Shown here: positions 1,769-5,474 of the stretch, piece by piece
How positions within the stretch are numbered: the stretch's first letter is position 1
How the letters are laid out: each line of letters opens with the position of its first letter
Source of the DNA: a virus
Lineage: Duplodnaviria; Heunggongvirae; Uroviricota; Caudoviricetes
Direction: 5' to 3' (one strand)
Virus record (IMG/VR): IMGVR_UViG_2671180577_000023
DNA: 5,717 bases
Program-made: the position numbers and the translations under genes
The notes under the pieces: model-generated
Seen by the model: only the letters and a program-made list of their open reading frames with translations
Databases searched by the model: none
What the model was told of the DNA's origin: nothing

Positions 1769-1924
1769 ATGAAGCAGCAAAAGGCGATGTTAGTCGCCCT
1801 GATCGTCATCTGTATTACCGTCGTAGTGACGGCACTGGTAACGAGGAAAGACCTCTGCGAGGTACGAATCCGAACCGGTCAGACGGAGGTTGCTGTCTTC
1901 ACAGCTTACGAACCTGAGGAGTAA
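1769..1924 (+). CDS. Hok/Gef-family type I toxin (51 aa, small membrane-active peptide)
   Basis: MKQQKAMLVALIVICITVVVTALVTRKDLCEVRIRTGQTEVAVFTAYEPEE has the Hok signature: N-terminal transmembrane helix then TRK.LCE.R...G..EVAAF.AYE. AAGGAG sits 9 nt upstream of the ATG. The ORF track extends the same frame to an ATG at 1712 (mok-like leader frame). Confidence 0.85.
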   Translation: MKQQKAMLVALIVICITVVVTALVTRKDLCEVRIRTGQTEVAVFTAYEPEE

Positions 1925-1992
1925 GAGACCAGGCGAGGGAGAAATCCCTCGCCACCTCTGATGTGTCAGGCATCCTCAACGCACCCGCACTT

Positions 1993-2014
1993 AACCCGCT
2001 TCGGCGGGTTTTTT
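1993..2014 (+). terminator. Rho-independent terminator ending the hok-like mRNA
   Basis: CCCGC-TTCG-GCGGG hairpin followed by TTTTTT. It is preceded at 1932-1953 by a 9-bp stem with GAAA loop (GGCGAGGGA gaaa TCCCTCGCC). Confidence 0.7.
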
Positions 2015-2133
2015 CACTTACTGTGGTTGTGAATACGATTGGTATTAGGCTATGCTAACAACATTAGCCTGACTAATTTTGTATTGACTTGATTTTTGTT
2101 AAAGAACAGGACGGAGAAGTAAGGGTACACCCA

Positions 2134-2313
2134 ATGAGCTACGCACTAAAAAAACACCCGCGATTGACTATTCCCCCTCGCGATAAAAGCGTTGTGGCAG
2201 CTCCGCGCCCGGCTATCGATGAAAATTGCACTCATCGTGAGCAGGTGAAAAATGCTTTCGATTTCGGTTTTTCTCGTTACGAGAAGGCAATGGAAGAACT
2301 TTCAAAAGTGTAA
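2134..2313 (+). CDS. Small protein (60 aa) directly upstream of the Doc-family gene; candidate antitoxin, not Phd-like
   Basis: ATG at 2134 with AAGGG 8 nt upstream; stop at 2311-2313 lies 18 nt before the Doc-like start. ORF-track frame 2089..2313 begins at a TTG. Sequence MSYALKKHPRLTIPPRDKSVVAAPRPAIDENCTHREQVKNAFDFGFSRYEKAMEELSKV shows no resemblance to Phd/YefM. Confidence 0.5.
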   Translation: MSYALKKHPRLTIPPRDKSVVAAPRPAIDENCTHREQVKNAFDFGFSRYEKAMEELSKV

Positions 2314-2331
2314 TGATGGGTATTGTGCTCT

Positions 2332-2817
2332 ATGGCTGAGATTGTTGAAGGAGTGCACTACCTTTCGTTTGATGATCTTACCGAAATTAATCGCCTTTTA
2401 ATTGAGCTTCAAACACCAGATGAACCTGTTAGTGTGCTGAGTGTTGATAATTTAAGTTCTTCTCAGTCTCGTCCCAGCATGGTTCGATGGTATGAACAGA
2501 CTAATGACATGTTTGTACTGGCATCAGTATTGATTGAAAGTCTGATTCAGAATCATCCATTTGCTAATGCAAACAAACGAACAGCTATGATGGCTGGTTA
2601 TGTCTTCTTGTTGTTGAATGGCTATGAGTTAACAGCACCAGGCGATGAAATCGTGGAAATGGCAGAGGGACTGGCCTGCAAAACCTATACTCGAGAAGAT
2701 CTCGAGAACTGGTTGTGTTATTGGTCTCGTGCGTATGACAGCCGGGAATTATGTAAAACAGGCGCAACTATTGTTTTGTATGAAACTATCAAGCTTAAAA
2801 TAGAACAGCAAAACTAA
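2332..2817 (+). CDS. Doc (death-on-curing) / Fic-fold family toxin, 161 aa
   Basis: Contains HPFANANKRTA, which fits the Doc motif H-x-F-x-(D/N)-(A/G)-N-K-R exactly. ORF-track frame 2323..2817 starts at TTG; the first ATG is at 2332. Confidence 0.8.
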   Translation: MAEIVEGVHYLSFDDLTEINRLLIELQTPDEPVSVLSVDNLSSSQSRPSMVRWYEQTNDMFVLASVLIESLIQNHPFANANKRTAMMAGYVFLLLNGYELTAPGDEIVEMAEGLACKTYTREDLENWLCYWSRAYDSRELCKTGATIVLYETIKLKIEQQN

Positions 2818-2833
2818 AGGTGCTTCTAATGAA

Positions 2834-2858
2834 AACCCGCTTCGGCGGGTTTTGTTGT
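2834..2858. terminator. Bidirectional intrinsic terminator between the convergent Doc-like and HigA-like genes
   Basis: CCCGC-TTCG-GCGGG hairpin (2836-2849) with TTTTGTTGT on the plus side and a T-run on the minus side. The hairpin and flanks (AACCCGCTTCGGCGGGTTTT) are identical to the hok terminator at 1993-2012. Confidence 0.6.
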
Positions 2859-2867
2859 ATTGGAGTA

Positions 2868-3185
2868 TCATGATATTACCTGGATCCCGTTTTTCTCTAC
2901 GACTGAAAGAAGGCGAAGAGCGGCACCTCCCGGCCGTTTTACACCACGTTCCCAGTCTGATATCAGGTTTTTACTGACGTTGAGGTATCTGGCAAAAACA
3001 GGTTGAGACAGATGCTCTCGTTCGCGCAGTGCACGGATCCTTTCCGGAGACATTACCGGCGCTGGCTGGAGACAAGTTTCATCGAATTCTCGCATAGTCT
3101 GTTTCGTTACTGCGCCGATATCATGAAGCGATTCCATCATTTCATGTACGGATGCAAGCGCATCACTGCGGTAATTTTTACTCAT
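2868..3185 (-). CDS. HigA-like antitoxin, XRE-type helix-turn-helix (COG2944-like), 105 aa
   Basis: ORF-track 2868..3185. C-terminal SPERIRALREREHLSQPVFARYLNVSKNLISDWERGVKRPGGAALRLL matches the recalled HTH antitoxin family partnered with RelE/ParE-like toxins. Its ATG (3185-3183) overlaps the stop of the upstream toxin frame (ATGAGTAA), the toxin-first order typical of HigBA. Confidence 0.8.
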   Translation of the reverse strand: MSKNYRSDALASVHEMMESLHDIGAVTKQTMREFDETCLQPAPVMSPERIRALREREHLSQPVFARYLNVSKNLISDWERGVKRPGGAALRLLSVVEKNGIQVIS

Positions 3186-3548
3186 TGGGTACCTCCGTAA
3201 ACTGACCCTGTAGAATCAGTTGTGCCAGTTGTTCATCTGTTAGATTGAGTACGTGAGGAGCCGCCTTCCGAAATGCACTTTCCGCAGTAGCGGTTATATT
3301 TTCACGTTCATTTTTTGCGTATGCATATACGAAAAAGGCCCTTGTGCCGACGCGATAGAAAATGATTGTGCGATAACCGCCAGATTTGCCGCCACCGACT
3401 CGTGGCAGACGTTGCTTGATAACGCCGTTACCCAGGTTTGCTGAGATAAGCCCGTTATCAGCCTGTTTAACAATTTCGCGCAGTGATTGGTCGGATATTT
3501 TGTTTTGCGTGCAAATCGCTCAAACCAGGCGTTTTTAAAAATGCGCAT
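3178..3548 (-). pseudogene. RelE/ParE-superfamily (HigB-like) toxin gene, disrupted by a frameshift after codon ~16
   Basis: From ATG 3548-3546 the frame reads MRIFKNAWFERFARK, the conserved N-terminus of this family, then runs into unrelated sequence (ORF-track 3294..3611). The rest of the toxin (KISDQSLREIVKQADNGLISANLGNGVIKQRLPRVGGGKSGGYRTIIFYRVGTRAFFVYAYAKNERENITATAESAFRKAAPHVLNLTDEQLAQLILQGQFTEVPNE) is intact in another frame with no start codon of its own. The break lies in the A-rich tract AAAACAAAATAT (about 3495-3506). Confidence 0.7.
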
Positions 3549-3570
3549 TTTTTGTTCCGTTATTAATGTA

Positions 3571-3585
3571 TAACACATAGTGTTA
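3571..3585. promoter_or_regulatory. Perfect inverted repeat TAACAC-ata-GTGTTA upstream of the higB-like start; candidate operator for the HigA-like repressor
   Basis: 6-bp arms with 3-bp spacer read directly; sits about 25 bp upstream of the toxin ATG in its promoter region. Confidence 0.35.
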
Positions 3586-3615
3586 CATTGCGTAGGGATC
3601 TGCAATGCCATCAGT

Positions 3616-3645
3616 TTGACAACGTCGCGTGTTCGGGGCTATATT
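3616..3645 (+). promoter_or_regulatory. Near-consensus sigma70 promoter (TTGACA, 18 nt, TATATT) driving the leader, c4-like RNA and ORF6N operon
   Basis: Hexamers read directly; the same architecture (TTGACG, 18 nt, TATATT) recurs at 5201-5230 upstream of the paralogous module. Confidence 0.6.
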
Positions 3646-3705
3646 CCTCACGCGCCAGCAAAACCTGGCGTCGGGATTAGCACCCCGGATATCGAAACGG
3701 TGCAT

Positions 3706-3726
3706 AACCGCGCTGGCGGTTTTTTT
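3706..3726 (+). terminator. Terminator-like hairpin plus T7 run in the leader, between target sites and the c4-like RNA (possible attenuator)
   Basis: AACCGC-GCTG-GCGGTT followed by TTTTTTT. The upstream CGCCAG (3653-3658) can pair with either CTGGCG copy (3665-3670 or 3713-3718), giving alternative folds. Confidence 0.45.
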
Positions 3727-3758
3727 ATGCGCTAAGCACAGTCACATTCGCGATTTAT

Positions 3759-3835
3759 GGCGGGCTGTGTGGGGGAGCCGAAAGGCTCGCCGGATGTTTC
3801 GACCGGTAGTGCTAACCCCGCACAGTTCGCCACCA
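3759..3835 (+). ncRNA. Candidate c4-like antisense regulatory RNA (~77 nt) upstream of the ORF6N gene
   Basis: A 16-bp closing helix (3759-3774 with 3816-3831) encloses a GNRA hairpin (GAGCC-GAAA-GGCTC) and two loops. Loop GTTTCGA (3796-3802) is complementary to TCGAAAC at 3692-3698 and 3873-3879; loop GTGCTAA (3809-3815) is complementary to TTAGCAC at 3677-3683 and 3842-3848. A 3-prime ACCA tail follows. The second target pair lies just upstream of the ORF6N RBS. Confidence 0.5.
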
Positions 3836-3890
3836 CGATGATTAGCACCTGACGGTGGCGAGGTAAAAATTATCGAAACGCGAGGTCATT

Positions 3891-4556
3891 ATGGCTGTTC
3901 AAATTTCTGTCGAAAACCTTTCCCCTGTTACCTATAACCAGATCCCCGTAATTACTACTGAACTGTTGGCTCACCTTTACGGAACAAAAATCAAAAACAT
4001 TTCTGATAACTTTCTGAACAACACGACGCGATTCATGCCCGGAAAGCATTACTTTAAAATTGAAAAAAACGAATTACGCGAGTTTAAGAACAGACCCGAA
4101 ACAATCGGGTTAGTTGGTAAAAATGCCCGCTCCCTCATCCTCTGGACAGAACGCGGCGCAGCCCGTCACGCAAAAATGCTCGAAACCGATCGGGCGTGGG
4201 AGGTATTCGAAAAACTGGAAGACTGCTATTTCAGCCAGGGAAAAACAGCACCAACCGAACAGCAGCCGCAGATTCAGCCACAATTCACAGCCGAAGAAAT
4301 CATCCTCCTTTGCTACATGCAGCTCTGGATGGAAAAAGCCCAGGACATCAGCAAACACCTGTATCCCATTATGAAAGAGCTGAACTCCTCATACACGAAC
4401 AAGCTGTATGACATTGCGTTTGAGACCATCTACATGGTGACGAAGAACAGAGACGCGCTACTGAGGGAGGTAACACGTCTCGACATGTCAAGTTCCGTTA
4501 TCCAGCGGGCCATGCCAATGCTGAAAAGCCTGCGGGCAAGACAATTTGAATTCTGA
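3891..4556 (+). CDS. Antirepressor-like protein with N-terminal ORF6N/KilA-N-type domain, 221 aa
   Basis: ORF-track 3891..4556; GAGG lies 5 nt upstream of the ATG. N-terminus MAVQISVENLSPVTYNQIPVITTELLAHLYGT...FMPGKHYFKIEKNELREF matches the recalled ORF6N pattern of phage antirepressors. Confidence 0.75.
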   Translation: MAVQISVENLSPVTYNQIPVITTELLAHLYGTKIKNISDNFLNNTTRFMPGKHYFKIEKNELREFKNRPETIGLVGKNARSLILWTERGAARHAKMLETDRAWEVFEKLEDCYFSQGKTAPTEQQPQIQPQFTAEEIILLCYMQLWMEKAQDISKHLYPIMKELNSSYTNKLYDIAFETIYMVTKNRDALLREVTRLDMSSSVIQRAMPMLKSLRARQFEF

Positions 4557-5200: not shown

Positions 5201-5230
5201 TTGACGTGATGATTTATTCGGGGCTATATT
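5201..5230 (+). promoter_or_regulatory. Sigma70 promoter (TTGACG, 18 nt, TATATT) of the second leader / c4-like / ORF6N module
   Basis: Same spacing and -10 as the promoter at 3616-3645. The downstream 40 nt (TTCCTCACGCGCCAGCAAAAYCTGGCGTCGGGATT) are nearly identical between modules. Confidence 0.55.
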
Positions 5231-5291
5231 CCTCACGCGCCAGCAAAATCTGGCGTCGGGATTGGCGTCCTGGATAGAGACCGCGACAGAT

Positions 5292-5314
5292 ACACGCCGC
5301 GAGCGTGTTTTTTA
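5292..5314 (+). terminator. Terminator-like hairpin plus T-run in the second leader (counterpart of 3706-3726)
   Basis: ACACGC-CGCGA-GCGTGT followed by TTTTTT. Sequence differs from module A but structure and position are conserved. Confidence 0.5.
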
Positions 5315-5344
5315 TTGTCGTATGCACGCGCACATCTGAATTAT

Positions 5345-5420
5345 GGTGGGCTGTGTGGGGGCGGAGAGATCCGCGCCGGTCGGTTTCCCGGTTACGCCAA
5401 CCCTGCACAGTTCACCACCA
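5345..5420 (+). ncRNA. Second candidate c4-like antisense RNA (~76 nt), diverged paralogue of 3759-3835
   Basis: Same architecture: 16-bp closing helix (5345-5360 with 5401-5416), GNRA hairpin GCGGA-GAGA-TCCGC, two recognition loops, ACCA tail. Loop ACGCCAA (5394-5400) is complementary to TTGGCGT at 5262-5268 and 5426-5432; loop GGTTTC is complementary to GAAACC near the RBS (5453-5458). Confidence 0.5.
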
Positions 5421-5474
5421 GACGATTGGCGTCGTCGGTGGTGAGTTATTAAGAAACCACTCGAGGGCGTCATT

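Follow-up and report, generated by a model that had tools for sequence, protein, structure and literature searches.

A Doc-family toxin gene and its small upstream partner form a putative toxin-antitoxin cassette in a lambdoid prophage of Escherichia coli

Introduction

What kind of antitoxin accompanies a Doc-family toxin when the gene directly upstream encodes a protein of 59 residues in which no DNA-binding domain can be recognized? The question is raised by a two-gene cassette in the IMG/VR virus record IMGVR_UViG_2671180577_000023 (Caudoviricetes), of which we analyzed a stretch of 5,717 nucleotides, hereafter the window. A preliminary description of this locus, made from the DNA letters, had proposed that the two genes are a candidate toxin-antitoxin (TA) pair. 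Here we find that the pair is probably a type II TA module in which the antitoxin is a stand-alone Doc-neutralizing helix, related to the C-terminus of the doc_partner/TasA antitoxins.

The Doc-family toxin

The toxin gene (positions 2332..2817, plus strand; ATG at 2332, TAA at 2815-2817) encodes a protein of 161 residues (WP_000818160), which RefSeq labels a death-on-curing family toxin and which belongs to PHROG 577 ("Doc-like toxin"). It matches the TIGR01550 model (DOC_P1) with an E value of 1.3e-35 and 122.2 bits, far over the curated cut-off of 38.65, and the Pfam Fic family (PF02661) with an E value of 2.9e-11 and 44.5 bits (cut-off 24); among the sequences of the Protein Data Bank (PDB), it matches the Doc chains of Enterococcus faecalis (9VZC, 1e-12) and phage P1 (3K33, 1e-4). 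The preliminary description had reported an exact Doc catalytic motif, and this is borne out: HPFANANKR occupies residues 75-83 (2554..2580, plus strand) and fits the Doc signature HxFx(D/N)(A/G)NKR, with H75, F77, N79, N81, K82, and R83 invariant among 29 homologs.

The protein had also been described as about 35 residues longer than P1 Doc, as indeed it is (161 versus 126 residues). Its homologs are conserved to about residue 141, through the stretch WLCxWSRxYDSRxLC, and then diverge into a variable tail of about 20 residues, which explains the extra length. The Docs partnered with AbrB-type proteins and E. faecalis Doc lie at much the same distance from the window Doc (56-62 bits), and P1 Doc is farther away (38 bits by blastp). 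By analogy with P1 Doc, the window Doc would be a Fic-fold kinase of the Doc type that phosphorylates EF-Tu and thereby stops translation.

The small partner gene and its pairing with doc

The small partner gene, the putative antitoxin gene (2134..2313, plus strand; ATG at 2134, TAA at 2311-2313), encodes 59 residues (WP_000119356) that RefSeq lists as a "hypothetical protein" and PHROG 2208 as of "unknown function". Searches of Pfam, NCBIfam, and the PDB sequences with this protein returned no match. A word-indexed search retrieved 17 close clusters, and an exhaustive profile search of 1.84 billion representatives retrieved 39 clusters at 50% identity, all of proteins 38-95 residues long, save two large proteins with multi-stretch matches; no fusion to a known domain occurs among the 39. 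Across 16 gap-free loci, the proportion of synonymous differences (pS) is 0.70, with synonymous sites saturated, and that of nonsynonymous differences (pN) is 0.21, giving a pN/pS of 0.285; the ratio is 0.185 for the helical part described below, the best-conserved part of the protein. In all 16 of these loci, the frame of the small gene is the only one open. The small open reading frame (ORF) is real and under purifying selection.

Two parts of the protein are conserved: hxIPxRDK (residues 11-18) and a near-invariant C-terminus, QVxNAFxxxFxRYEKAxExLSKV. The first belongs to a linear motif, R-L-x-I-P-x-R-D-K (residues 10-18; 2161..2187, plus strand), in a basic and proline-rich segment predicted to be unstructured; in the 39 cluster representatives, conservation reaches 90% or more at I13, P14, and R16. 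Inspection of the 59 residues for [ST]xxxE[GN] found no instance, THRE and SRYE each falling one residue short, in agreement with the preliminary description, which had held that the partner lacks the FicA inhibitory motif (S/T)xxxE(G/N).

The two genes lie in the same frame, separated by an 18-nt spacer (2314..2331, plus strand; TGA TGG GTA TTG TGC TCT) that contains no terminator. We surveyed their association by scanning one genome per species with the Doc alignment, with three contig look-ups in addition, and by taking into the subfamily those Docs with an identity of at least 45%. All 30 loci so obtained, from Enterobacterales, Gilliamella, Pseudomonas, and Stutzerimonas, have the same small gene directly upstream of doc, on the same strand, with a gap of 0-18 nt; the pair is also found in temperate phages. 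The operon-like arrangement inferred earlier for this one locus is conserved, and the pairing is far beyond chance. In four of 24 species loci (L022, L027, L028, and L030), doc is frameshifted or truncated and the small gene is intact, and there is no case of the reverse, a broken small gene beside an intact doc, among the 24. This is the asymmetry that a toxic gene and its protective neighbor would be expected to show. The Doc of Pseudomonas aeruginosa PAO1 has likewise been reported as frameshifted (PMC1626090).

A C-terminal helix related to Doc-neutralizing segments

An AlphaFold2 model of the small protein, built from the 39-sequence family alignment, contains a single helix at residues 34-58 (block-mean predicted local distance difference test, pLDDT, of 86-93 over residues 31-59), with no secondary structure before it. 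This amphipathic helix (HREQVKNAFDFGFSRYEKAMEELSK; 2233..2307, plus strand) is the predicted Doc-binding and neutralizing element. A clue to its affinities came from the most distant Docs of the genome scan, in Symploca, Sphingomonas, and Mesorhizobium (L032-L034), where the upstream genes encode TIGR02609 "doc_partner" proteins, consisting of an AbrB/MazE domain and then a C-terminal helix that ends in ...RYKVALQKLAE. Aligned with hhalign, the small family and doc_partner gave a score of 23.0 (P = 7.8e-4), with residues 33-58 of the former opposite residues 53-77 of the latter, both at the extreme C-terminus. Shuffling did not reproduce this score, whether the columns of the whole alignment were shuffled (200 trials, maximum 18.6) or those of the helix only (200 trials, maximum 19.1). 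Residues invariant or nearly so in the small family or in doc_partner fall opposite conserved residues of the other (Q37/Q57, A41/A60, Y49/Y68, and L56/L75).

A second test used an ungapped position-specific scoring matrix anchored at the C-terminus. Three doc_partner tails scored z = 3.7-5.1 and a 56-residue Doc partner from Vibrio ("group 3", see below) scored z = 4.2, while MazE, YefM, and RelB tails, used as controls, scored about 0. Three Phd-type tails matched in the same register, with z = 1.7, 2.0, and 3.4, the match being weak for P1 Phd itself. Since the helix matches doc_partner, and the Phd tails weakly in register, it is best regarded as a stand-alone modular element and not as an unrelated solution to the neutralization of Doc. 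The TIGR02609 model itself was not reached by the small protein at E <= 0.1, and there is no PF04014 match.

Any relation to Phd is confined to this tail. A profile search of the PDB with the small family found no Phd, and hhalign against P1 Phd (its sequence verified exactly against the PDB) gave 13.8, inside the shuffle range and with a different segment aligned. Foldseek found no matches to the one-helix model in the PDB, a result that is informative only as excluding a Phd-like fold. A single helix without a beta-sheet rules out the YefM/Phd fold. As the preliminary description had supposed, the protein modeled alone is not a diverged Phd, and the earlier statement that it bears no resemblance to Phd/YefM stands for the fold (no PF02604 match, one helix, and the Foldseek and hhalign results); it is too strong for the tail, given the weak in-register match of the Phd-type tails. 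The further proposal, that the antitoxin is of an uncharacterized type, cannot be upheld, as the helix matches the doc_partner C-terminus and the family was already listed in 2006.

Two ideas about the N-terminal motif were also set aside. Its reading as a relic of an AbrB strand ("RLxIPPRDK" for "GVILPKE") was rejected: the N-terminal 33 residues gave an hhalign score of 6.4 against the AbrB domain, equal to shuffles. The idea of a pseudo-substrate mimicking the Thr382 loop of EF-Tu was dropped because there is no conserved serine or threonine (position 19 varies).

Comparison with known systems

Doc (TasB) homologs were sorted by their upstream genes by Fico and Mahillon in 2006 (BMC Genomics 7:259, PMC1626090). 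Their "group 2" comprises putative antitoxins of Doc homologs from Yersinia pestis CO92, KIM, and 91001, Salmonella Typhi Ty2, and P. aeruginosa PAO1, and its alignment (supplementary file 2) ends in ...HxxQVKNAFxFGFxRYEKAMEELSKV, as does the window protein, placing them in the same family. The pairing is therefore already on record as a putative composite TA locus. Group 2 was catalogued by the similarity of the upstream ORFs; that study gives no structure, mechanism, link to the C-termini of TasA or Phd, or experiment, and it does not describe the E. coli prophage copy or the boundaries of its cassette.

Several features are shared with better-known systems. In TasA-TasB (TIGR02609 doc_partner-Doc), the antitoxin is likewise encoded upstream of Doc and carries a conserved C-terminal helix (...RYxxALxxLAE), and the Docs partnered with doc_partner share with the window Doc an LLxNGYELTA segment. 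TasA/doc_partner, however, has an N-terminal SpoVT/AbrB DNA-binding domain with a GNS motif, and the window protein has no such domain. The Phd-Doc pairs of P1 (3K33, 3DD7) and E. faecalis (9VZC) have the same gene order and Doc catalytic motif as the window. In these, a C-terminal Phd helix of about 22-28 residues inserts into Doc, the contact being formed by residues 52-73 of P1 Phd (PDB 3DD7) and by residues 52-79 of E. faecalis Phd, a bent helix (PMC13034048); by analogy, the window protein presumably neutralizes Doc in the same way. The N-domain of Phd, YefM-type in P1 and a beta-dome in E. faecalis, autoregulates the operon and is absent in the window protein.

That such a segment can act alone has a precedent. 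Ernits et al. (2023, PMC10440598) found that Phd-C, fused only to SUMO, neutralizes a Doc toxin (Corynebacterium doosanense Doc:PanA), and antitoxins made of the neutralization element alone exist (PMC10440598). Phd-C of the Panacea systems is a portable, linear Doc-neutralizing segment and in this respect the same concept as the window protein, a comparison of concept and not of sequence. Phd-C sits on a Panacea domain and, when isolated, needed a stabilizing tag, whereas the window protein appears to be naturally free-standing with a short conserved N-terminal tail. The "group 3" Doc partners of Vibrio cholerae and Shewanella (PMC1626090) have 56 residues, no known domain, and a tail ending in ...THQKTFTKLADM; their N-terminal sequence differs and lacks hxIPxRDK, and they form a sequence cluster separate from the window family. 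The tail scores significantly against the helix profile of the window family (z = 4.2), and Doc antitoxins of the helix-only kind may have more than one origin.

A transposon-directed insertion site sequencing (TraDIS) study of Yersinia pseudotuberculosis found YPTB1706 and YPTB1707 ("prevent host death" and "death on curing") to be essential. Their membership in the window family is unconfirmed because the Y. pestis locus lies between fliE and a glycosylase gene, whereas YPTB1705 is annotated as a phage tail protein; moreover, genes as short as these are easily called essential in error.

A mobile low-GC cassette

The window is identical (100%) to the chromosome of E. coli ML35 and 99.8% identical to O104:H4 outbreak strains, and it spans the nin region of a lambdoid prophage. 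Compared with E. coli GE3, in which the region from hokD to the convergent HTH/RelE genes is collinear without the pair (the left arm of the match stops at 2012), both genes lie in an inserted cassette of 821 bp (2013..2833, plus strand). A 20-bp direct repeat, AACCCGCTTCGGCGGGTTTT, is present in two identical copies around the cassette and in a single copy at the empty site of GE3. In a terminator scan, the left copy (1993..2012, plus strand) coincides with the intrinsic terminator of hokD, and the right copy (2834-2853) lies in the intrinsic terminator of the cassette (2832..2853, plus strand). Two copies here against one in GE3 suggest that the cassette is a moron gained or lost by recombination at the terminator. 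Its GC content is low, 0.41-0.43 versus 0.47-0.54 in the flanks, and with a terminator of its own it is a classic moron.

Elsewhere, the pair is found between tail genes and KilA-N genes in a Salmonella prophage, between topA and sodC in the Providencia chromosome, between fliE and a glycosylase gene in Y. pestis, and beside the integrase in the Pseudomonas phages Sirocco and LPPA56. With at least five unrelated contexts, it travels as a unit between prophages and chromosomes. Within E. coli, at least 80% of window positions 1900-3000 is present in 120 of 5426 complete genomes, and a partial match occurs in 4544.

Expression signals

The small gene is preceded by a Shine-Dalgarno sequence, AAGGG (2121..2125, plus strand), read from the sequence 8 nt before the ATG. 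A candidate promoter/operator region farther upstream (2040..2072, plus strand) consists of TGGTATTAG, which resembles an extended -10 element, followed by an imperfect palindrome, TTAGGCTA-N12-TAGCCTGA (2045-2072). In eight of 21 loci the sequence TGGTATT is found again, 59-117 nt ahead of the small gene, and it is this recurrence in relatives that makes TGGTATTAG and the palindrome a weak candidate for a promoter and operator.

Other loci offer clearer candidates. In three of them, from Providencia and Morganella (L005, L009, and L014), near-consensus promoters lie 60-100 nt upstream of the small gene, with a palindrome between the -35 and -10 elements. The arrangement is TTGACT-N17-CATTAT, overlapping TATAAT/TATAAG, with palindrome arms of 7 to 11 bp in the spacer; in L005 and L014 the palindrome spans 22 bp (e.g., TAATGAAAGTT/AGCTTTCATTA). 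These spacer palindromes look like operators, though the antitoxin has no known DNA-binding domain.

Probably, a promoter within the cassette drives both genes as one transcript and their translation is coupled. In relatives (L002-L031), the invariant last antitoxin codons, S-K-V (TCN AAG GTN), provide an AAGGT Shine-Dalgarno sequence for doc, 5-15 nt upstream of its start; part of the C-terminal conservation may therefore act at the RNA level. The same junction in the window reads AAAGTG, which is weaker as a Shine-Dalgarno sequence.

Neighboring genes

The gene order in the window is DUF977, DUF551, hok/sok, the small gene, doc, a convergent HTH/RelE-like pair, an ORF6N antirepressor, NinB, and NinE. 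A complete hok/sok type I TA locus (1600-1924) lies directly upstream of the Doc cassette and comprises sok RNA (1600-1774; Rfam, 116.9 bits), a mok-like ORF (1712-1924), and annotated hokD (about 1769-1924). Convergent with doc is a third TA-like pair on the minus strand (2868-3611), an HTH (Xre/MqsA-like) protein (2868-3185) and a RelE-like toxin (PF06296). The gene for the latter looks frameshifted: its N-terminus, MRIFKNAWFERFARK..., is encoded in the ORF at 3294-3611 and the remainder in another frame at 3178-3516, annotated in RefSeq with a non-ATG start. The RelE-like toxin gene is likewise in two pieces in E. coli GE3. An immunity RNA set of the P1/P7 type (c4-a1b1 targets, isrK, and C4 antisense RNA) is present in two tandem copies, at 3639-3837 and 5224-5422, and each is followed by an antirepressor gene, ORF6N/P22_AR_C at 3891-4556 and a second from 5475. 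The window thus holds duplicated C4-controlled antirepressor modules flanking ninB and ninE.

A model for the pair and its alternatives

We suggest that the two genes constitute a type II TA cassette borne as a moron in the nin region of the prophage, and that the 59-residue protein is an antitoxin comprising little beyond a portable Doc-neutralizing element. Its helix (residues 34-58) would bind Doc in the manner that crystal structures show for the C-terminal helix of Phd from P1 and from E. faecalis, and its labile, unstructured N-terminus would provide for antitoxin turnover. Candidate roles of hxIPxRDK include a protease degron, an extra Doc contact, and a weak DNA contact.

Several points weigh against this model. 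No DNA-binding domain is recognizable in the small protein with Pfam, NCBIfam, the PDB, or AlphaFold2, so that the usual autoregulation has no obvious basis, and a consensus scan of the window detected no strong sigma-70 promoter ahead of the small gene. The helix similarity is of modest significance and extends over only about 25 residues, and amphipathic helices can come to resemble each other by convergence. The conserved hxIPxRDK motif is left unexplained by an antitoxin that acts through its helix. The AlphaFold2 model of Doc (from 29 close homologs) is all-helical and of low confidence (pLDDT 52.9), which precludes its use in a fold search or in an assessment of the C-terminal extension, and in searchable papers we found no experiment on the small-protein family, whether on toxicity or on neutralization.

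The neighborhood and the unexplained motif leave some room for an accessory system of the phage. Doc would then modify a target of host or phage origin, for instance in abortive infection, superinfection exclusion, or the tuning of translation, and the small protein would be more than an antidote, acting as a regulator, a chaperone, or a sensor of a trigger. Consistent with this, the cassette is a moron with its own terminator beside two other TA loci, the pair occurs in several unrelated temperate phages, the N-terminal motif has no part in simple neutralization, and Fic/Doc proteins can have other activities and targets (PMC10440598). PADLOC, however, gave no defense-system match for the small protein and only marginal ones for Doc, the pair also occupies chromosomal sites outside prophages, and both the likeness of the helix to known Doc antitoxins and the toxin-first decay fit ordinary TA logic. 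We regard such a system as unlikely, while noting that it and a TA module are not mutually exclusive. About as unlikely, in our estimate, is a domain-less antitoxin of two elements, in which hxIPxRDK joins the helix as a new module (a degron or trigger sensor that frees Doc when a phage infects, or a non-canonical contact to DNA or to the Doc active site) and the cassette serves as an abortive-infection switch without DNA-binding autoregulation.

The remaining alternatives fare worse. Pfam places the toxin in the Fic/DOC family, and it might accordingly be an AMP- or other NMP-transferase like classical Fic, with a FicA-like inhibitor as its partner; this is improbable, as the motif is of the Doc type (NKR) and not HxFx(D/E)GNGRxxR, the TIGR01550 score is well over its cut-off, and the partner lacks (S/T)xxxE(G/N). 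A classical phd-doc module with a highly diverged Phd/YefM is more improbable still. The position upstream of doc, the weak in-register similarity of the Phd-type tails, and genome annotations that name some homologs "prevent host death protein" speak for it, but the sequence searches, the P1 Phd comparison, and the one-helix model all speak against it, including the absence of NCBIfam and PF02604 matches, and a YefM/Phd domain of about 50 residues would not fit into the 33 that precede the helix, a stretch also too rich in proline for it. Finally, the small ORF is short and without a domain match, as a chance or non-functional ORF might be beside a solitary or otherwise regulated Doc; its 39 clusters, its pN/pS with saturated synonymous sites, its status as the sole open frame in 16 of 16 loci, the synteny in 30 of 30, and its good Shine-Dalgarno sequence make this scarcely credible. 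A type II TA module with a stand-alone, doc_partner-related helix as its antitoxin remains the likely explanation.

Implications

With the pairing on record since 2006 and the idea of a modular neutralizing helix established, the pair is a variant of a known system and opens no new class. If confirmed, it would represent a natural, free-standing form of the portable Doc-neutralizing helix, and it would mean that loss of the DNA-binding domain need not keep a type II antitoxin from persisting across gammaproteobacteria and temperate phages, which bears on how antitoxins are assembled from exchangeable parts and on how a module is regulated without an obvious repressor. Confirmation would also give a function to PHROG 2208 and to a "hypothetical protein" that about 2% of the complete E. 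coli genomes encode, those of O104:H4 outbreak strains among them, and the prophage region, with hok/sok and a RelE-like pair already in place, would gain a third TA locus.

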